The notes: a model not told the origin generated them from the letters alone. A stretch of 46,601 nucleotides of DNA from Spirochaetaceae bacterium (GCA_046540795.1 JBKHEN010000001.1:1-46601), one strand, 5' to 3'; numbered from the stretch's first letter, positions 1,579-46,601 are shown. Numbers and translations: made by a program.

Positions 1579-2376
1579 TCAGACAAGCGACACTTCGCGC
1601 ACCCGTTCCACCGAGACCGCGAGTCCCGAGTCACGGTCTACTTCGACCAGGACCCCGCAGATCACCGCCGCGGTCTCCGCCGGAGCGTTTCGCAGAGGCA
1701 ATTGCGTCTTCATTCGATCCACGGAGATATCGGGGTCGAAGCCGATCACGCTCTCCCTCGGGGCGCAGGCACCCATATCGCTGATGTAGGCGGTACCGGA
1801 GGGCAGGATGCGCTCGTCGGCGGTTTGTATGTGCGTGTGGGTACCTACCACCACCGCGACGTCACCGTCGAGGTAGTAACCGAGGGCTTCTTTCTCGTGA
1901 GTCGACTCGGCGTGAAAATCCACCAGCACGATGTCCGTGGTATGCTTGAGCTTTCGGAGCACTTCCTTGGCCCGACGAAAGGGGCAGTCGATGGCCGGCA
2001 TCCGCACCCGTCCCTGCAAGTTCAATACGCCAACCCGCAGTCCCTTCTGTTCCACGACGCAGCTTCCGTGCCCGGGGTTCCCTCCGGGATAGTTCGCCGG
2101 ACGGAGGATGCGCTCCTCGGAGTCGAGATAGGGATAGACCTCCTTCCGCTGCCACACGTGATTGCCTGTGGTCAGGACGTGGAAACCTGCGCCGAACAGC
2201 TCGACGGCGATCTCTTCGGTCACGCCGAACCCGTCGGCGGCGTTTTCGACGTTTATCAGCAGAAACTCCGCCGAATACCGCTTCACGAGCTTGGGCATGC
2301 TCGTGAGGACGGCCCGATATCCGGACCGTCCCACGATGTCACCGAGCATGAGCACCCGAAACGGCTTATCGGGCAT
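1579..2376 (-). CDS. ymdB: YmdB-family metallophosphoesterase (2',3'-cyclic-nucleotide 2'-phosphodiesterase family)
   Basis: 265 aa with metallophosphoesterase motifs LGDIVGRSG, GNHVW, DFHAE and GTHTH. It overlaps the rny stop by 11 nt; the rny-ymdB pairing is classical. Confidence 0.85.
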   Translation of the reverse strand: MPDKPFRVLMLGDIVGRSGYRAVLTSMPKLVKRYSAEFLLINVENAADGFGVTEEIAVELFGAGFHVLTTGNHVWQRKEVYPYLDSEERILRPANYPGGNPGHGSCVVEQKGLRVGVLNLQGRVRMPAIDCPFRRAKEVLRKLKHTTDIVLVDFHAESTHEKEALGYYLDGDVAVVVGTHTHIQTADERILPSGTAYISDMGACAPRESVIGFDPDISVDRMKTQLPLRNAPAETAAVICGVLVEVDRDSGLAVSVERVREVSLV

Positions 2377-3895
2377 ACTCTATGATGCGGGTTTCGCGAA
2401 TCATGGTAACCTTGATCCGCCCCGGATAGCGCAACTGACTCTCGATCTCCCGCGCTATCTCTTTGGCAATGCCTTTCGCCTCGACGTCGGAAACCTGCTC
2501 GTGATCCACCATGATGCGCAGCTCCCGCCCGGCCTGGATGGCATAGGCTTTGTCCACGCCGTCGAACTGCTCGGCAATGCGCTCGAGGTTTTCCAGGCGG
2601 CGGATGTAGTTGTCCAAGGTCTCACGCCGGGCACCGGGGCGGGAGGCCGACAGAGCGTCGGCTACCTGCACGATCACCGATTCCACGCAGCTGTGCGGAA
2701 CGTCTCCGTGGTGTGCCGCCACGGCATTGACCACGCGCTCGTCCTCACCGATGCGTTTTATCAACTCTACACCGAGCTCCACATGGCTGGAGTCTCCATC
2801 GGTTTCAATCCCTTTTCCGACGTCGTGAAGCAGACCGCCCCGCTTGGCGATCTCTCGATCCGCGTCGAGCTCCGCCGCCATCATCCCCGCAAAGACCGCC
2901 ACTTCCTTACTGTGCGCGAGAACGTTCTGCCCGTAGCTCGTACGATAGTGCAGGCGTCCAATACCGCGGATTCCTTCCGGTTTCATGTGGTGGATGCCCA
3001 GATCGAAGAGCACCTTCTCGCCCTCTTCGTAAATGGACTGACTGATCTCACCGGTAACCTTTTGGACGACTTCCTCGATCCGTGTGGGGTGGATCCGCCC
3101 GTCGGAAATGAGCCGCTCGAGCGATCGCCGCGCAATTTCCTTGCGCACCGGATCGAAACAGGAGACTACCACCGCCTCCGGTGTGTCGTCGATAATCACG
3201 TCTACACCGGTAAGCGTCTCGAGGGTCCGGATATTACGGCCTTCCCGGCCGATGATCCGACCCTTCATTTCGTCGTTCGGCAGGTTCACCGAGGTTACGG
3301 TAACCTCCGCGTTGGTCTCCGACGCCTTGCGCTGAATCGTGGAAACGAGGATTTCCCGCGCCTCTTTCTCCGCGGTGACCTGCGCTTCCTGCTCTATCTT
3401 GTTCAGCAGCCCCTGGGCTTCATGCCGTGCTTCGTCCTCGAGGGACTGCACGATCATCTTCTTAGCGTCCTCTGCGGTGAGCCCCGAGAGACGCTCCAAC
3501 TCTTCCCGCCAATAGGCCTCTTGTCGGCCGACCTCTTCTTCGTGTTCCGCCAGTTTCCTCTCACGGTCGGTGAAAGCCTGCCGCTGCTTTTCCACGGCAG
3601 AGGTCTTTTCTTCTAGGTTTTCTTCCCTTTGCAGCAGCCGTTTCTCGAACTTCTGGAGTTCGTTTCTACGCTCCCTGAGCTGTTGTTCCTGTTCATTGCG
3701 CTCCTGGAGTAACTCGTCCTTCGTTTCAAGAATCAGTTCCTTCTTCTGAGCTTCCGCTTCTTTTATTGCGTCTTTCTTTAGTCGCTCGGCTTTCTGTTCT
3801 GAGGAAGAAAGCTGAAATCTGGCATATAGCCATCGGATCGTCCAACCTAGAACCAAACCCGCAAGAGGAAGGGCGATGATCAGCACCGGCTGCAT
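2366..3895 (-). CDS. rny: Ribonuclease Y
   Basis: N-terminal TM helix, long coiled-coil (E/K/Q-rich), KH motif GRIIGREGRNIRTLE and HD motif LLHDVGK. I prefer the ATG at 3895, with GGAGG at 3906-3902 six nt upstream, over the GTG at 3901 used by the ORF track. Confidence 0.95.
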   Translation of the reverse strand: MQPVLIIALPLAGLVLGWTIRWLYARFQLSSSEQKAERLKKDAIKEAEAQKKELILETKDELLQERNEQEQQLRERRNELQKFEKRLLQREENLEEKTSAVEKQRQAFTDRERKLAEHEEEVGRQEAYWREELERLSGLTAEDAKKMIVQSLEDEARHEAQGLLNKIEQEAQVTAEKEAREILVSTIQRKASETNAEVTVTSVNLPNDEMKGRIIGREGRNIRTLETLTGVDVIIDDTPEAVVVSCFDPVRKEIARRSLERLISDGRIHPTRIEEVVQKVTGEISQSIYEEGEKVLFDLGIHHMKPEGIRGIGRLHYRTSYGQNVLAHSKEVAVFAGMMAAELDADREIAKRGGLLHDVGKGIETDGDSSHVELGVELIKRIGEDERVVNAVAAHHGDVPHSCVESVIVQVADALSASRPGARRETLDNYIRRLENLERIAEQFDGVDKAYAIQAGRELRIMVDHEQVSDVEAKGIAKEIAREIESQLRYPGRIKVTMIRETRIIEYAR

Positions 3896-3926
3896 ACGCA
3901 CCCTCCTGCGTTCTGTATGATCCTTT

Positions 3927-3955
3927 AACCTAACGCAGTTGCCGGGTCATGTCAA
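3927..3955 (-). promoter_or_regulatory. Candidate sigma-70 promoter for rny-ymdB-tlyA (TTGACA-N17-TAGGTT on the minus strand)
   Basis: Plus-strand tgtcaa at 3950-3955 and aaccta at 3927-3932, with a 17-nt spacer, in the only AT-richer stretch upstream of rny. Confidence 0.3.
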
Positions 3956-4011
3956 CACGATACTGTATAGATAACTAAACATATAGAGCTTGACCGTATG
4001 TGCTGCCGCGT

Positions 4012-4665
4012 TCAGCGGAACTGCATGTCGTCAACGGTGAAACGGAGCTGCCGTCGTGAGTGCGCCCGGAGGTCGTGTTTCTCGTAATAGTCGCCGTCCT
4101 CGTCTTCTCCGCGGATGCTGAGAGTTGCCGCGGGGTCGTCGGCAGGCGGTATGCGTACCTCCGTCGTTGCCCCCGAGGCGATCGCTCCAACCCTCTCGAG
4201 TTCGCTCCACGCCCCTTCACTTCCCCAGCGATACCACAGCCGGAGAAGACGGTACCCCGTGTCGTTAACAAGACGTACCTGTCGCCCGGAGGCTGCCGCG
4301 GGTATTTCCTGATCACCGCCGAAGTGCAGGTCGTCCAGCGCGATGGTGAGGAGACGGCCCTCTGCGGCGCCCGGACCCTGAAGCAGATAACGGTCTCCCT
4401 CCTCGTCTACAGACAGAAGGAAAAGGTCCGCAGGCGAGAGGGTAATGGTTGTCTCACCGCCGGGGAGCAACGGTCCGTCGACGAGCAGGTTTTCCCCGGT
4501 TTCGGCATTCCGTCCCGCCTCCTCATCCAGCGCATACAGCTCCAGCATGGGATATTCGGTTTCGTTGCGTACCTTGACCTCCATGGCCTGACCGTGGCTA
4601 GGCTCGACAATGAGCACGACGAGCACGAGGAGGAACAGGTACAGTGGTACGTGAGCCCTCTTCAT
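4012..4665 (-). CDS. Hypothetical secreted protein with two tandem ~85-aa related modules
   Basis: Signal-peptide-like N-terminus (MKRAHVPLYLFLLVLVVLIVEPSHGQA). Two modules share the pattern V-x-V/L-x-N-E/D-T-x-Y..L-x-L ... DE-E/D-GD-x-Y. I recognise no family. Confidence 0.55.
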   Translation of the reverse strand: MKRAHVPLYLFLLVLVVLIVEPSHGQAMEVKVRNETEYPMLELYALDEEAGRNAETGENLLVDGPLLPGGETTITLSPADLFLLSVDEEGDRYLLQGPGAAEGRLLTIALDDLHFGGDQEIPAAASGRQVRLVNDTGYRLLRLWYRWGSEGAWSELERVGAIASGATTEVRIPPADDPAATLSIRGEDEDGDYYEKHDLRAHSRRQLRFTVDDMQFR

Positions 4666-5026: not shown

Positions 5027-5707
5027 CTAATTGCCGGGCTCGTCGAAAAGGTCGTCCATGAAGTCGACCTCCGACATTTCACGCCGGCTGATGTCGAGCC
5101 TTCGGTCCCGGCGCTCGTCCCGCCGCCGCAGGCGCAGTGTGCGGCGCAACCCCCGTTGCATGAATGTGAGCATGTCACCGAGCAGCACGTCGACGTTCTC
5201 GTCCTCAATGTGATAGATCAACGTGTTGAAGACGGCGATGACCAACGCGGTGGGATCGTCGTAGAGACCCGTTCGGAATACCCCCTTTCTGCTGCCTTCC
5301 CGTATGATGTCCCGCAGCATGCTTTCCACACGCCGTCGCAACGAGGCCGCCCGGCGCTCCCGCGCTTCGAGTCCCGGATAGGCATACTTGGCGTCCCGCA
5401 GCAGCACCCCCCGGAGGATGCGGTTATGCCGGACGCCGAGGGTCACGAAACGGTAGACCGCCTTGAGCTTGTTCATCGGCGAATGCAGCCGTGAGATCAC
5501 GCGCTCGGCCTTGCGGATGCCTTCTCCCTCGACGACATCAAGGACGTGATCGTAGAAGTCCTCTTTGCTCGAGAAGTACTTGTAGAACGTGCCCACGCTC
5601 AAGGAGGCCCGACTGGTTACGTCGCTTATCGAAACGTCCTTGTAGCCGTCACGGGAGAACAGCTGCAAACCCACCGACAGGAGCAGCGCCCGCTTATCGG
5701 ATTCCAT
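5027..5707 (-). CDS. TetR/AcrR-family transcriptional regulator
   Basis: N-terminal HTH (LLSVGLQLFSRDGYKDVSISDVTSRASLSVGTFYKYFSSKEDF). Divergent from the cysteate synthase gene. GGAGGTG lies upstream of the ATG at 5707. Confidence 0.85.
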   Translation of the reverse strand: MESDKRALLLSVGLQLFSRDGYKDVSISDVTSRASLSVGTFYKYFSSKEDFYDHVLDVVEGEGIRKAERVISRLHSPMNKLKAVYRFVTLGVRHNRILRGVLLRDAKYAYPGLEARERRAASLRRRVESMLRDIIREGSRKGVFRTGLYDDPTALVIAVFNTLIYHIEDENVDVLLGDMLTFMQRGLRRTLRLRRRDERRDRRLDISRREMSEVDFMDDLFDEPGN

Positions 5708-5731
5708 AGCACCTCCGGTGCCTCGATCTAG

Positions 5732-5749
5732 ACGAAATGAATATTTCGT
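5732..5749. promoter_or_regulatory. Perfect inverted repeat ACGAAAT-gaat-ATTTCGT, candidate TetR operator
   Basis: Arms at 5732-5738 and 5743-5749 are exact reverse complements. The repeat sits 25-42 nt upstream of the TetR ATG, inside the spacer of a possible minus-strand promoter (GTGAAC-N17-TAGATC). Confidence 0.4.
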
Positions 5750-5844
5750 TCACATATTCACTCCTTCCTTCCGGCGCAACCGGCTCCGGTCGGCCGCTAC
5801 TCGCACCATCCTCGCCGAAACACTATCGAATTTCTATACGTTCG

Positions 5845-5872
5845 TTGACAACCCAATTCCCAAAACTATACT
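5845..5872 (+). promoter_or_regulatory. Near-consensus sigma-70 promoter TTGACA-N16-TATACT upstream of the cysteate synthase gene
   Basis: TTGACA at 5845-5850 and TATACT at 5867-5872, about 64 nt upstream of the ATG at 5936, in an AT-richer intergenic stretch. Confidence 0.45.
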
Positions 5873-5935
5873 GCGGGTGACTTTTGAAGCCGGCTCGCGG
5901 GCGAGCTCCCGCAGAGCCAACCTCGGGGAGGGCCC

Positions 5936-7291
5936 ATGGCACCGTACGCCACACCACAGCAGAGCGGCACAACTGTGGAGACCGGAATCGAACCCACCGC
6001 ATACCGGCTTCAATGCCTCGAGACGGGCGAAATAATTGACGACACAGCCGCCGCAGGTGGACCGATGACCCTCGCCTGCCCCAGGGCCGAAGGACGCGCG
6101 TTTCTTCGCACGGTCTATGCACAGCGGCAAATCTCCGTCGGCGCGGATCATGAAGGTATCTATCGCTTCGGCGATTGGTTGCCTTTACAGCGGCGACTTT
6201 TAGGCTCCTCAGCTCCGGTTACGTACAAGAGCGAAGGGCTTGCAGAGGCCCTCGGTTTGGACGAACTCTACGTCACCTTCAGCGGGTATTGGCCCGAGAA
6301 GGGCGTGCAGATGCACACGGGCACCTTTAAGGAGTGCGAAGCATACAGTGTCTGCGCACGCATGAGCCCCGAAACCGACCGGACTCTGGTAGTGGCTTCA
6401 GCCGGGAACACCGCCCGCGCATTCATGCGGGTGTGCTCGGAGAACGAAATCCCCCTGGTCATTTGCATACCCGAAGAGAACCTCGAAGCTCTGTGGAGCG
6501 TCGGTCCCATTGCTCGGTGCGTAAAGGTCGTTGCCGCCGGGGGCAATGCTGATTACACCGATGCCATCCGCTTGGCGGGGCTTATCTCCGGGTTCGACGG
6601 ATTCATGCCCGAAGGCGGGGCGCGCAACGTTGCACGCCGAGACGGTATGGGCACGACGATGCTGTCGGCCGTAAACACGATAGGCCGGATCCCGGACTAC
6701 TACTTCCAGGCGGTCGGCAGCGGTACCGGAGCCATAGCGGCATGGGAGGCAAACCTCCGACTCCTGCGCGACGGTCGATTCGGCAACCACACGACGCGGT
6801 TGGTCCTCTCGCAGAACAGTCCGTTTCTGTTGTTGCACGACTCCTGGAAACGCGGGCGCAGGGATCTCCTCGACATCGAAGAATCAAAGGCAAAGGAGCA
6901 GATTCACGCCATTCGGGGCAAGGTGCTCTCCAATCGCACGCCGCCATACTCCGTGCGAGGCGGCTTGTTCGACGCACTCACCGAGACCGACGGCATCATG
7001 CTCGCCGTCGACAACGACCAGGCTGATCGGGCGATGCATCTGTTCCATCGCACCGAGGGCATCGACCTGGCGCCGGCGGCGTCCGTGGCGGTTGCCAGCC
7101 TGGTGGAGGCTCGACGGAGCGGTATGCTCGGACGCGAAGACGTGGTCGTGCTCAACGTAACCGGTGGCGGCTACGCTCGGATCTTTGCCGACTACGATCT
7201 GGTACACGCGCGTCCTGACGCGATAATCGATAAACGTCACTTCAGCGAGGCCCGTATTCGCGAGGTACTCAGTCACCTCTTCGAGCGCTAA
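5936..7291 (+). CDS. Threonine-synthase-like PLP enzyme, best fit cysteate synthase
   Basis: 451 aa. The N-terminal pattern YRLQCLETGEII..MTLACP..AFLRTVY..GIYRFGDWLP matches my memory of the cysteate synthase family (TIGR03844-type). PLP-lysine context TGTFKECEA; also SAGNTARAF and VGSGTGAIAA. GGGGAGGG lies upstream of the ATG. Confidence 0.65.
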   Translation: MAPYATPQQSGTTVETGIEPTAYRLQCLETGEIIDDTAAAGGPMTLACPRAEGRAFLRTVYAQRQISVGADHEGIYRFGDWLPLQRRLLGSSAPVTYKSEGLAEALGLDELYVTFSGYWPEKGVQMHTGTFKECEAYSVCARMSPETDRTLVVASAGNTARAFMRVCSENEIPLVICIPEENLEALWSVGPIARCVKVVAAGGNADYTDAIRLAGLISGFDGFMPEGGARNVARRDGMGTTMLSAVNTIGRIPDYYFQAVGSGTGAIAAWEANLRLLRDGRFGNHTTRLVLSQNSPFLLLHDSWKRGRRDLLDIEESKAKEQIHAIRGKVLSNRTPPYSVRGGLFDALTETDGIMLAVDNDQADRAMHLFHRTEGIDLAPAASVAVASLVEARRSGMLGREDVVVLNVTGGGYARIFADYDLVHARPDAIIDKRHFSEARIREVLSHLFER

Positions 7292-7317
7292 GAGAGGAAT
7301 CAAGGAGGGATAGCCAT

Positions 7318-8625
7318 ATGGCTCTACAGGAAAGCTCGACGGTTCAAGCGCACACGCGCACCGATCTCTTCGATAAATGCGACACCGACGCCGGATACTT
7401 CGGAGGCCAACGGGTCGAGGACGATCACTACTATACCCGTCCCATTCTGCCGCCCAAGCCGGGTACGGTAATGGACTTTCAAGGTGAGCCGAAGATCATG
7501 TGGTCGGTCAACAATTACCTCGGTCTGGCCGACCACCCCGACATCAAGAAGGCGGCGACGGCGGCAGTGGAGGAGTTCGGCACAGCGGCACCGATGGGCT
7601 CACGGATGATGACCGGCAATACCGAGTATCACCGGGCACTGGAGGGACGGCTTGCCGAAGTAGCGCAGAAGGAGTCGGCGTTCCTCTTCAATTACGGGTA
7701 TCTCGGGGTGTTGGGTACGATCGCCTCGCTGGTAGGCCCTGACGACGTTGTCGTGGTGGACAAGCTGGCGCATTCCTGTATCGTTGACGGTGCGTTCCTT
7801 GCATCGGGAACTCTCAGGGTGTTCAAGCACAATAACATGGAGAGCCTCGAGACGGTACTCAAGAAGGTCAACCGGGAACGCAAGGGCGGCGTGCTCATCG
7901 TTACCGAAGGCGTGTACGGGATGACCGGGGATGTTGCGAAGCTCCGCGAGATCACCGAGCTCGCACGTCGCTATGACGCGCGACTGTTCATCGACGACGC
8001 ACACGGCTGGGGCGTGATGGGCGAGCAGGGCCGCGGCAGCGCCGATTACCTCGGAGTACAGGACGACGTCGACATCTACTTCGGCACCTTTGCCAAGTCT
8101 TTCGCCGCGATCGGCGGATTCTCCGCCGGAGAAAAACGGGCGATCGACTGGATCAGCTACAATGCCCGAACACAGGTGTTTGCCAAGAGCCTCCCGATGA
8201 TCTACGTACGGACCCTCGACACGACCCTTGACCTGGTTACCGCCGCAGACGACCGACGAGAACGCATGTGGCAAAACTCCGCCGTGCTCAAAGAGGGCAT
8301 CTCCGATCTCGGCTATTTTGTCGGACCGGGCGAGTCGCCAATCTGCGCGGTGTTCGCGCCGTTGCACGACCAGGACGTGTTCACCGTCGGCAAACAGCTG
8401 ATTCGGTATTTCCGTGACCGGGGCGTATTCGTCACCGCCGTCACTTACCCCGTCATTCCAATGGGACTGGTCATGTTCCGCATGATCCCCACGGCGGACC
8501 ACACGCAGGAACAGATCGCCCGGACCATCGAGGTCTTCAAGTCGCTGCGGGACGAGCCCGACTTCGACGTAACCTTCGGGGAAGAGGACGTCCGTACAAT
8601 CCGGAAGGTGTACGGGCAGGCGTGA
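7318..8625 (+). CDS. Alpha-oxoamine synthase family PLP enzyme (BioF/Kbl/serine-palmitoyltransferase-like); candidate cysteate-C-fatty acyltransferase
   Basis: 435 aa with motifs NNYLGL, DDAHGWGVMG and GTFAKSF (PLP lysine). The long SPT-like N-terminus differs from short BioF. AAGGAGGG lies upstream of the ATG; 26 nt after the previous stop. Confidence 0.8.
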   Translation: MALQESSTVQAHTRTDLFDKCDTDAGYFGGQRVEDDHYYTRPILPPKPGTVMDFQGEPKIMWSVNNYLGLADHPDIKKAATAAVEEFGTAAPMGSRMMTGNTEYHRALEGRLAEVAQKESAFLFNYGYLGVLGTIASLVGPDDVVVVDKLAHSCIVDGAFLASGTLRVFKHNNMESLETVLKKVNRERKGGVLIVTEGVYGMTGDVAKLREITELARRYDARLFIDDAHGWGVMGEQGRGSADYLGVQDDVDIYFGTFAKSFAAIGGFSAGEKRAIDWISYNARTQVFAKSLPMIYVRTLDTTLDLVTAADDRRERMWQNSAVLKEGISDLGYFVGPGESPICAVFAPLHDQDVFTVGKQLIRYFRDRGVFVTAVTYPVIPMGLVMFRMIPTADHTQEQIARTIEVFKSLRDEPDFDVTFGEEDVRTIRKVYGQA

Positions 8626-8708: not shown

Positions 8709-8760
8709 GGCGCCGCTTCACAGCGTGCGGCGCCGTTTCACAGCGTGCGGCGCCGCTTGA
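8709..8760. repeat. 2.6 tandem copies of a 20-bp unit (ggcgccgyttcacagcgtgc)
   Basis: Units at 8709-8728 and 8729-8748, plus a partial copy at 8749-8760. The array spans the gap between convergent genes and runs into the last codons of the VOC gene. Confidence 0.75.
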
Positions 8761-9820
8761 GTCCCATCAGCTTCAGTAGCCACCGGGGTACGGTTTTACC
8801 CCGCTCACCCTTTCCCAGGCTCACGTTGATACCGAGGGCGGGCAGCACGGGAACCTTGTGGGTCTCCACGAACTCAACCAGCGTGCCGGCCGCATCCTCC
8901 ACATAAGCAAAACGACCCGCCGCCTTACCCATGTCGAAACTCCGTCCCGAGTCCACGGTGAACTCCACACCCGCCTCGCGGCAGGCCTCTTTCAAGGCGC
9001 CGAGCCCCTGCACCTCGAAACAAACGTGGATGAACCCGAGGTCTCCCCAGTATCGATTCCCGAAAACAGGCACCCCTCGCTCATCGAGGGCCTGCACCAG
9101 CTCGACGGCGGTCTTGCCGAGCAGAGGCGAGAACCCTCCCCGCCGCGGCTGCGTATGCTCGAGCAACACACGACGCACCCGCCAACTTCCTCCGGGGAGC
9201 CCCGTGAGGTCGGCAAAGCTGCCGGTCTCGTCATAGGTCATGCGATCGTACCCGAGGATGTCGCGATACAGCGGCAAGGTTGCCTCGATATCGGGCGTTC
9301 CGATCATAACACCGGCCACGCCGCCGACTCGGCCGGGGCGCCGAGCAAGCCATCTCTCTCCCTCAGGCGCCTCGATTATCTGAAACGCATTCCCCCGGGG
9401 GTCCCGGAGGAGAAAATGCTTCCGTCCCGCAGGATCCGTGACCGGTTGCGAAAGCAGTGCGGTTCCTGCCTCCCTCAACGCTCGGTATGCGGCATCTACG
9501 TCCGGGGCTTTCAATCGGACCAGAAGTATGCCGTAGTCGCCGAGATGCGGGGGCCGGGGCGGAGGTGTCGGCGTGCGACTGGTGTACTGCCAGACCTCGA
9601 AACCTCCTCCCCCGTTCATGTTGATCGCCAGGGCCGCGCGCCGACTCTGCACGGAACCTCCGGTATACCGGGTCATGAACGGCGCCTGCGCGGCATCATC
9701 GAACGCGGGAACGTCGAATCCGAGATGCTCGGCATACCATTTCCACGCGTCCGGCAGATCCGAGACCCCAATCCCCACCTGTTGTATACCTGTGATTCCG
9801 TAGCCTTGCTCCGACGACAT
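8738..9820 (-). CDS. VOC (glyoxalase/bleomycin-resistance/dioxygenase) family protein, multi-domain
   Basis: 360 aa. The pattern GIxxVGIGVSDLxxAxxWYxxxLGF recurs as later VOC-like modules (GVMIGTPDIEATLPLYRDILGY, IHVCFEV). Confidence 0.7.
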   Translation of the reverse strand: MSSEQGYGITGIQQVGIGVSDLPDAWKWYAEHLGFDVPAFDDAAQAPFMTRYTGGSVQSRRAALAINMNGGGGFEVWQYTSRTPTPPPRPPHLGDYGILLVRLKAPDVDAAYRALREAGTALLSQPVTDPAGRKHFLLRDPRGNAFQIIEAPEGERWLARRPGRVGGVAGVMIGTPDIEATLPLYRDILGYDRMTYDETGSFADLTGLPGGSWRVRRVLLEHTQPRRGGFSPLLGKTAVELVQALDERGVPVFGNRYWGDLGFIHVCFEVQGLGALKEACREAGVEFTVDSGRSFDMGKAAGRFAYVEDAAGTLVEFVETHKVPVLPALGINVSLGKGERGKTVPRWLLKLMGLKRRRTL

Positions 9821-12219: not shown

Positions 12220-12293
12220 TGAACGCGGCGGGATTCGAACCCACGACCTTCGGCTCCGGAGGCCGACGCTCTATCCAACTGAGCTACGCGTCC
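12220..12293 (-). tRNA. tRNA-Arg (anticodon CCG)
   Basis: Hand-folded cloverleaf on the minus strand, 74 nt: GGACGCG-TA-GCTC-AGTTGGATA-GAGC-G-TCGGC-CTCCGGA-GCCGA-AGGTC-GTGGG-TTCGAAT-CCCGC-CGCGTTC-A. CCA is not encoded. Confidence 0.9.
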
Positions 12294-46528: not shown

Positions 46529-46601
46529 CGCAGGGTAGAGCAGCTGGCAGCTCGTCGGGCTCATAACCCGGAGGTCGCAGGTTCGAATCCTGCCCCTGCT
46601 A
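46529..46601 (+). tRNA. Initiator-type tRNA-Met (anticodon CAT), ends at the window edge at the discriminator base
   Basis: Hand fold: CGCAGGG-TA-GAGC-AGCTGGCA-GCTC-G-TCGGG-CTCATAA-CCCGG-AGGTC-GCAGG-TTCGAAT-CCTGC-CCCTGCT-A. Initiator hallmarks are a 1:72 mismatch (C-U), three consecutive G:C pairs closing the anticodon stem, and A11:U24. It is very similar to E. coli tRNA-fMet. Confidence 0.8.

Follow-up and report, generated by a model that had tools for sequence, protein, structure and literature searches.

Capnine-type sulfonolipids are made by a short route in which phosphoserine and sulfite yield cysteate, an acyl condensation gives 3-ketocapnine and a reduction gives capnine; their synthesis appears limited to Bacteroidota (2023 review, PMC10191378). 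Among sulfonolipid producers, Alistipes and Odoribacter have a cysteate synthase of the archaeal type, while Capnocytophaga uses the distantly related CapA (PMC10191378). Sulfonolipids serve as a chemotaxonomic marker for Bacteroidota and are bioactive, with links to gliding motility, TLR4-mediated immune effects and rosette induction in choanoflagellates. Here we analyzed a 46,601-nt stretch (the window) of a metagenome-assembled genome (MAG) of a Spirochaetaceae bacterium, in which a cysteate synthase gene is followed by a gene for an alpha-oxoamine synthase (AOS). An earlier reading made without database searches (the sequence-only reading) had proposed this pair as a candidate sulfonolipid head-group module. 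Profile, structure and gene-neighborhood comparisons now indicate that the pair quite probably is an operon of two genes that builds the sulfonated head group of capnine-type sulfonolipids. Homologous loci compared with the window are designated by L-numbers (L001 etc.). The pair and the elements around it are as follows.

5936-7291, plus strand: gene assigned to cysteate synthase of the archaeal (ThrC-like) type, 451 amino acids (aa), from TIGR03844 and PDB 9k3c
7318-8625, plus strand: gene for a pyridoxal 5'-phosphate (PLP)-dependent AOS, 435 aa, assigned as a SulA/CapB-type cysteate-C-fatty acyltransferase from PDB 28eh and 7u7h and residue K290
8738-9820, minus strand: gene for a two-domain VOC (glyoxalase-fold) protein, 360 aa, with two Pfam Glyoxalase domains, convergent with the AOS gene
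5027-5707, minus strand: gene for a TetR-family regulator, 226 aa (PF00440 TetR_N, 47 bits), divergent from the operon
5738-5760, no strand assigned: candidate TetR operator, the palindrome TGAATAT-N9-ATATTCA, proposed from conservation across loci
5845-5872, plus strand: sigma-70-like promoter match, TTGACA-16-TATACT, a pattern match at 11 of 12 positions

The open reading frame coordinates and lengths, the 26-nt gap between the two enzyme genes and the AOS motifs NNYLGL, DDAHGWG and GTFAKSF were all recovered as the sequence-only reading had given them, and the gap contains a ribosome-binding site, AAGGAGG, for the AOS gene.

The 451-aa protein scored 492.7 bits against the NCBIfam cysteate synthase model TIGR03844, which has a curated cutoff of 324.9 and represents a family originally associated with methanogen coenzyme M synthesis. 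Threonine synthase (thrC) models gave 22-65 bits against cutoffs of 167-421, with the best of them reaching 65 against 303. The nearest solved relative is PDB 9k3c, 'Cysteate synthase' (464 bits, 52% identity over residues 19-431), compared to at most 46 bits for threonine synthase structures. Identity to the Odoribacter enzymes was 54-58%. In an alignment of 13 spirochaete and Bacteroidota synthases, K132 in the TFKE motif and 120 further columns are invariant; we take K132 to be the lysine forming the Schiff base with PLP, from general knowledge of the ThrC family. The protein did not group with threonine synthases, and that identity was rejected by the hidden Markov model (HMM) cutoffs and the PDB ranking. 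By these matches the gene at 5936-7291 is a cysteate synthase of the archaeal/Alistipes (ThrC-like) type, as first suspected from its N-terminal pattern, and its predicted reaction is the conversion of O-phospho-L-serine and sulfite to L-cysteate and phosphate. The first gene is already correctly named cysteate synthase by NCBI in these MAGs.

The 435-aa protein was closest among solved structures to 28eh, 'Cysteate-C-fatty acyltransferase' (357 bits, 41% identity), and to SulA of Alistipes finegoldii (7u7h; 349 bits, 43% identity). The best serine palmitoyltransferase (Spt) reached 246 bits, Kbl 218, BioF 167 and the CqsA autoinducer synthases 116, and identity to the Spt structures 3a2b and 2x8u was 34-36%. 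Every NCBIfam AOS model fell below its cutoff: bioF with 305 bits against 426, Kbl with 302 against 460 and 258 against 493, Spt with 235-297 against 500-670, and the ALAS models likewise. Scores of about 300 bits to BioF, Kbl and Spt models that nonetheless miss all cutoffs are the outcome to expect when an AOS subfamily lacks its own model.

Active-site residues were compared using the catalytic set of SulA (Asn53, His140, Asp217, His220, Lys251 and Arg376) as the reference; the set in the window protein is N66, H152, D227, H229, K260 (PLP) and R388. Lys281 of SulA is its sole active-site difference from Spt, and the K281A variant is inactive (PMC9304779). K290 of the window protein (QVFAKSLPMI) aligns with this lysine in SulA (QLYAKSLPMP) and with its counterpart in 28eh (QMFAKSLPMI). 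The position is lysine in the window and in all 16 spirochaete orthologues, alanine in Spts and asparagine in Kbl-like paralogues. A neighbor-joining tree placed the spirochaete AOS proteins in a single clade (bootstrap 100/100), which joined the characterized 28eh and SulA to the exclusion of Spts and paralogues (100/100). The sequence-only reading had seen an SPT-like AOS and proposed the CapB/SulA chemistry for it, and BioF, Kbl and Spt were rejected as identities by the HMM cutoffs, the PDB ranking and the lysine at the diagnostic position. We therefore assign 7318-8625, from these comparisons, as a SulA/CapB-type cysteate acyltransferase, predicted to condense cysteate with acyl-acyl carrier protein (acyl-ACP) to a 3-ketocapnine-type product and CO2. 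A second AOS, a paralogue of only 31% identity that has, like Kbl-type enzymes, asparagine in the diagnostic place, adjoins the VOC gene in two spirochaete loci (L019, 14720-15826, minus strand; L029, 14454-15551, minus strand).

To place the pair among its relatives, species-representative genomes were scanned with the cysteate synthase alignment, which returned more than 577 relatives. The best 80 were examined; 14 of them are labeled Spirochaetota, including Oceanispirochaeta, and the rest are mostly Bacteroidota. Two further loci were found through the AOS, giving 16 spirochaete loci. A SulA-type gene lies immediately downstream of the synthase gene, on the same strand, in all 16, whereas the approximately 63 Bacteroidota loci among the best 80 show no SulA-type gene at a distance of up to 10 kb from the synthase. 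The linkage in all 16 loci is indirect evidence for the predicted use of cysteate and long-chain acyl-ACP by the AOS. RNase Y and S2/EF-Ts/RRF/UppS flanks are common to 10 loci, the window included, and some spirochaete pairs sit on contigs of 1.6, 1.9, 2.6 and 3.9 Mb. The shared flanks and megabase contigs disfavor mis-binning and indicate vertical inheritance. The spirochaete origin that had been surmised from gene context was borne out: proteins 99-100% identical to the products of all three central genes are named by NCBI as Spirochaetaceae bacterium MAG proteins, Spirochaetota loci occur among the best 80 synthase relatives, and the housekeeping context of the window is syntenic with other Spirochaetota records. 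Three synthase contigs carry odd bin labels, L030 as Neomarinimicrobiota, L032 as Lentisphaerae and L056 as Thiohalospira. L030 has an adjacent SulA-type AOS and a VOC gene and was placed inside the spirochaete grade, and the L032 and L056 synthases are nested among Bacteroidota; all three are either mis-binned or horizontal transfers.

Two arrangements alternate at the same chromosomal site, one flanked by tetR and the other by cysD-cysNC. The divergent-tetR arrangement was found in eight loci, including the window. Seven loci (L008, L017, L019, L029, L036, L037 and L069) instead carry cysD and a cysN-cysC fusion directly upstream of the pair, with the cysD-cysNC-cys-AOS operon spanning 7298-12565 in L037 and 7321-13337 in L017. 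A gene for a reductase of 3'-phosphoadenosine 5'-phosphosulfate or adenosine 5'-phosphosulfate (PAPS/APS reductase, cysH) lies directly downstream in five of these seven. The cysD product passes NF003587 (337 bits, cutoff 195) and the PAPS/APS reductase passes NF002537 (275 bits, cutoff 154). In this gene order cysD-cysNC-cys-AOS-cysH would encode a contiguous route from sulfate through PAPS and sulfite to cysteate and an acylated product, and the cysD-cysNC and cysH flanks in relatives are strong contextual evidence for the cysteate chemistry assigned to the pair.

The divergent TetR regulator seen in the sequence-only reading was recovered by the PF00440 match. No NCBIfam equivalog scored above its cutoff for this protein; the best matches were AcuR, ScbR and Bacillus FadR-like models at 35-41 bits. 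Orthologues with 52-88% identity occupy the same divergent position in L001-L004, L007, L010 and L026. At 5779-6429 of L002, tblastn gave a full-length TetR match (54% identity), although the gene calls cover only 108 aa and 61 aa, so that this tetR is either a disrupted gene or carries an assembly frameshift.

The palindrome TGAATAT-N9-ATATTCA has a single match in the window where 0.49 is expected, which is not significant alone. A form of it, TGAA(T/C)-N13-(A/G)TTCA, recurs in the tetR-cys spacer of L001, L003, L004, L007, L010 and L026, next to the tetR start, with 14 invariant positions in a spacer of otherwise 42% mean identity. It is read as a TetR operator because of this conservation across loci, not because of the match in the window alone, and we predict that TetR binds at 5738-5760. 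The palindrome may act on the cys promoter, which lies about 85 nt from it, or on tetR alone. The same element, TGAAT-N13-ATTCA, stands directly upstream of the SulA-type AOS gene in L148, a differently arranged metagenome locus whose TetR is 45% identical to that of the window. Positions 465-4689 of L148 hold, in order, a VOC gene, a PAPS-reductase-like open reading frame on the opposite strand, the palindrome, the SulA-type AOS gene and tetR; no TIGR03844 synthase was detected in the 9.7-kb stretch of L148 examined, and L148 is, as far as its gene order can tell, a third arrangement of the same parts.

The near-consensus promoter noted earlier was also found; the match TTGACA-16-TATACT ends 64 nt upstream of the synthase ATG, and its -35 hexamer, TTGACA, is kept in seven of the eight aligned tetR-cys spacers. 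Three promoter-like matches occur in the 4.1-kb region compared to 0.8 expected from shuffles. Rfam gave no known riboswitch or other RNA in the cys leader (E <= 1).

In 15 of the 16 spirochaete loci, including those with unrelated flanks (L011, L037 and L069), a VOC gene is found no more than 10 kb from the pair. The conserved VOC proteins, of 350-360 aa, average 64% identity per alignment column, and some of their His, Glu, Asp and Arg residues are invariant, H265, E240, E316 and E319 among them. An AlphaFold2 model of the window protein (pLDDT 94.8) matched only generic two-domain VOC metalloenzymes in Foldseek, with a TM score of about 0.55, and its chemistry could not be assigned from the best PDB sequence match (27 bits) or the best NCBIfam match, methylmalonyl-CoA epimerase (37 bits, cutoff 115). 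Orthologues with 51-55% identity occur in Bacteroidota and Rhodothermales (VOC genes at L083 8001-9059, L087 8001-9062 and L168 6557-7615), where they sit in operons running from a fusion of fatty-acyl-AMP ligase (FAAL), ACP and SulA-type AOS to VOC and then to a short-chain dehydrogenase/reductase (SDR). The fusion proteins, of 1124-1180 aa, are found in Rhodothermales and other Bacteroidota (L083 4429-7956; L168 3186-6560; L088, L090 and L114), and in L168 the fusion gene overlaps the VOC start by 4 nt. Their AOS domains carry the diagnostic lysine (FAKSLPM) and are 50-55% identical to the spirochaete enzymes, compared to 45-46% to SulA and 28eh.

One spirochaete locus, L058, has its VOC gene (2259-3317) on the other side of the pair, beside an SDR gene (3351-4145, minus strand, 264 aa) that lies between VOC and the cysteate synthase gene; this SDR is absent from the window. 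It scores 257 bits against NF004825 (cutoff 215), a generic equivalog, and its other matches are to generic FabG and 11-beta-HSD types only. The L058 protein is 47-50% identical to the SDRs of Bacteroidota SulA-type/VOC/SDR operons; those of L058, L083 and L087 share 45-50% mutual identity and all pass NF004825. We consider the L058 SDR a candidate 3-ketocapnine reductase.

Across 80 metagenome loci anchored on VOC, an orthologous SDR is adjacent in about 20, a SulA-type AOS is present in 5 and a PlsC-type acyltransferase in 7. About 45 of the 80 have no SDR, SulA-type or acyltransferase genes, and VOC contexts are thus not all pathway-related; some of these 45 are still lipid-related, having a patatin-like phospholipase or else a DAGK_cat lipid kinase, and in others the neighbors are unrelated. 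The PlsC-type (PF01553) acyltransferases, of 440-456 aa, are convergent with or near VOC in Bacteroidota (L085 6023-7393, minus strand; L087 9059-10387, minus strand; L091, L092 and L134), and one possible role for them would be the as yet unassigned N-acylation of capnine. Since VOC orthologues share operons with SulA-type enzymes and an orthologous SDR, VOC may be an overlooked component of the pathway, and both VOC and this SDR are probably linked to sulfonolipid synthesis. Speculatively, a non-oxidative role for VOC would be likelier than a dioxygenase, as many carriers are anaerobes. Our literature search found no paper tying a glyoxalase to sulfonolipids beyond an incidental table entry.

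Computation gives the families of both enzymes, the diagnostic residue, the conserved operon of Spirochaetota and, in relatives, the link of this operon to sulfate activation; the pathway set out here predicts from them the two reactions, which acyl donor is used and how long its chain is, the later steps and the final lipid, control by TetR and a role for VOC. The synthase would make L-cysteate by putting sulfite in place of the phosphate of O-phospho-L-serine. The SulA/CapB-type enzyme would then form the external aldimine of cysteate on K260 and carry out a decarboxylative condensation in which the fatty acyl thioester is probably acyl-ACP, as it is for SulA, with K290 closing the active site as Lys281 does in SulA. 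The expected product is a 3-keto-capnine-type 2-amino-3-oxo-alkane-1-sulfonate, whose ketone would be reduced to capnine by enzymes encoded elsewhere, possibly followed by N-acylation to a sulfobacin-type membrane lipid. The operon would be transcribed from the sigma-70-like promoter, probably under control of the divergent TetR through the palindrome at 5738-5760, and the VOC protein probably works with the pathway.

Several observations weigh against this pathway. Profile scans detected no SDR or reductase gene anywhere in the 46.6-kb window, which extends the earlier remark that none is adjacent to the pair, and the window likewise contains no acyltransferase, including any N-acyltransferase. 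That no reductase adjoins the pair tells nothing either way, since characterized Bacteroidota producers also have their reductase genes at other sites (PMC11211663); the 3-ketocapnine-type product made in E. coli in that study was observed at ESI(+) m/z 364.25. The window also has no sulfate-assimilation gene (cysDN or cysH), so none adjoins the pair; the sulfite supply that the sequence-only reading had suggested looking for is encoded beside the pair, by cysD, cysNC and cysH, in relatives and not in the window lineage. The identity of both enzymes to characterized ones is moderate (41-52%), the AOS tree is neighbor-joining only, with few outgroups, and the synthase tree, which lacks an outgroup, does not show which way any transfer between phyla went. 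All carriers seen among the best 80 genome matches are MAGs, with no named cultured strain among them. The intact-polar-lipid table of cultured Oceanispirochaeta piezotolerans M1 and M2, strains that may or may not carry the genes, lists no capnine or sulfonate lipids, and the laboratory behind this table reports capnines in Bacteroidota (PMC11129491). The acyl chain length is not readable from sequence.

Some of these points would also fit a reading in which the enzymes are correctly assigned and the product is something other than a bulk membrane sulfonolipid, such as another cysteate-derived amino-ketone acting as a short- or medium-chain signal or specialized metabolite made conditionally under TetR. 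The lack of reductase and N-acyltransferase genes near the pair, the Oceanispirochaeta table and the open chain length can all be counted in its favor, as can the conservation of TetR and palindrome beside the pair, TetR control being typical of conditional pathways; signal-making AOS enzymes do exist, and the CqsA synthases are detectable homologues at 116 bits. However, the window AOS is closest to the lipid-forming SulA and to 28eh and has the same active-site set. Half of the spirochaete loci lack TetR, and there the pair is part of a dedicated sulfate-activation operon, suggesting substantial flux. Related SulA-type domains are fused to a fatty-acyl-AMP ligase and ACP, which implies long-chain substrates. 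We regard this product alternative as unlikely. It is very unlikely that the synthase serves a different sulfonate route (sulfopyruvate, coenzyme M, taurine or sulfoacetaldehyde) beside a serine, glycine or alanine enzyme of the Spt, Kbl or BioF type that is adjacent by chance. TIGR03844 is historically a coenzyme M family of methanogens, most of the papers found on cysteate synthase use the term in that setting, and the AOS does score about 300 bits to BioF, Kbl and Spt models, but these scores (297-305 bits) are below cutoffs of 426-640, the diagnostic residue is lysine instead of the alanine of Spt or the asparagine of Kbl-like proteins, and a separate Kbl-like paralogue is present in L019 and L029. 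The pair is adjacent in 16 of 16 spirochaete loci across varied contexts, and no comDE, sulfopyruvate decarboxylase, taurine or coenzyme M genes were detected in the window.

That all carriers among the best 80 matches are MAGs, and that contigs with odd labels such as L030, L032 and L056 attest to binning noise or transfer, could also point to a mis-binned or recently transferred Bacteroidota fragment that says nothing about spirochaetes. We consider this extremely improbable: RNase Y and the S2/EF-Ts/RRF/UppS block enclose the pair in the window and nine other loci, the pair is found on the megabase contigs listed above, the region has an even GC content of about 0.61, the AOS proteins of spirochaetes cluster in a clade of their own (100/100), and the adjacent synthase-AOS arrangement was not seen in the approximately 63 Bacteroidota loci. 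A broader proposal, which we put forward tentatively and hold to be less likely than not, is that Spirochaetota are the first group outside Bacteroidota known to make capnine-type sulfonolipids, by means of a self-contained module extended in some lineages to cysD-cysNC-cys-AOS-cysH, and that VOC together with the NF004825-type SDR is an overlooked biosynthesis component common to Spirochaetota, Rhodothermales and other Bacteroidota, acting on 3-ketocapnine, with VOC perhaps a metal-dependent epimerase/isomerase or a carrier.

Beyond the pair, the window has a housekeeping context, with genes for FtsJ, YmdB, RNase Y, S2, EF-Ts, RRF, UppS, CdsA, RseP and DnaB, and further for L9, S18, SSB, pyruvate kinase, GlnE and ClpB. 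A gene between RNase Y and tetR (4012-4665, minus strand) encodes a 217-aa protein with a hydrophobic N-terminus resembling a signal peptide; it has no Pfam or NCBIfam match and is weakly conserved (27-41%), in closer relatives only. The only Rfam matches in the window are two tRNA genes, at 12220-12293 (minus strand) and 46529-46601 (plus strand), the former falling within the minus-strand gene string that ends in the VOC gene.

Our literature search found no paper linking sulfonolipids, capnine or its genes, or cysteate synthase to spirochaetes. A wider distribution is not a wholly new idea, as one study has reported loosely defined pathway-gene homologues among human-associated bacteria of 13 phyla. 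The variant features of the spirochaete loci are the operon coupling, the sulfate-activation operons, TetR control and the VOC/SDR partners, and judging from these genes, sulfur-containing sulfonolipids are probably not confined to Bacteroidota. If so, vertical inheritance of the operon in free-living spirochaetes would enlarge the range of producers, which matters for the use of capnines as biomarkers in sediments and sulfidic waters, and one would have to ask what function a sulfonated sphingoid lipid has in the spirochaete envelope. The cysD-cysNC-cys-AOS-cysH operons would offer a compact gene set for heterologous production, and the recurring link between VOC, SDR and SulA-type enzymes a specific candidate where pathway steps have no assignment yet.

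Among described systems, a close counterpart of the window pair is that of A. finegoldii (SulA, alfi_1224). Both have a TIGR03844-type synthase, not CapA, and the two AOS enzymes belong to the same subfamily, being 43% identical and having both the catalytic residues and the SulA-specific lysine in common; the 3-ketocapnine reductases (KCR) of A. finegoldii are unlinked, and a reductase is likewise not clustered in the window. The systems differ in phylum and in gene order, with synthase and AOS in one operon here and no such pairing within 10 kb in the Bacteroidota loci, and the spirochaete loci add TetR control or, in some, cysD-cysNC upstream with cysH downstream, together with a previously undescribed VOC partner. 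The CapA-CapB-CapC set of Capnocytophaga and Ornithobacterium and the Cys/CFAT/KCR set of Chryseobacterium gleum carry out the same chemistry that is predicted for the window pair. The window AOS is homologous to the cysteate-C-fatty acyltransferase 28eh, whereas CapA is, according to the review, only distantly related to the archaeal-type synthase (PMC10191378). Bacterial Spts share the fold, the PLP mechanism and the Asn/His/Asp/His/Lys/Arg set with the window AOS, but are less identical to it, score about 100 bits lower than SulA-type enzymes and have alanine at the position of K290. The methanogen cysteate synthase of coenzyme M synthesis belongs to the same HMM family, whose cutoff the window protein passes; in methanogens the route continues through sulfopyruvate and ComDE, whereas in the window the partner of the synthase is an acyltransferase of the SulA/CapB type.

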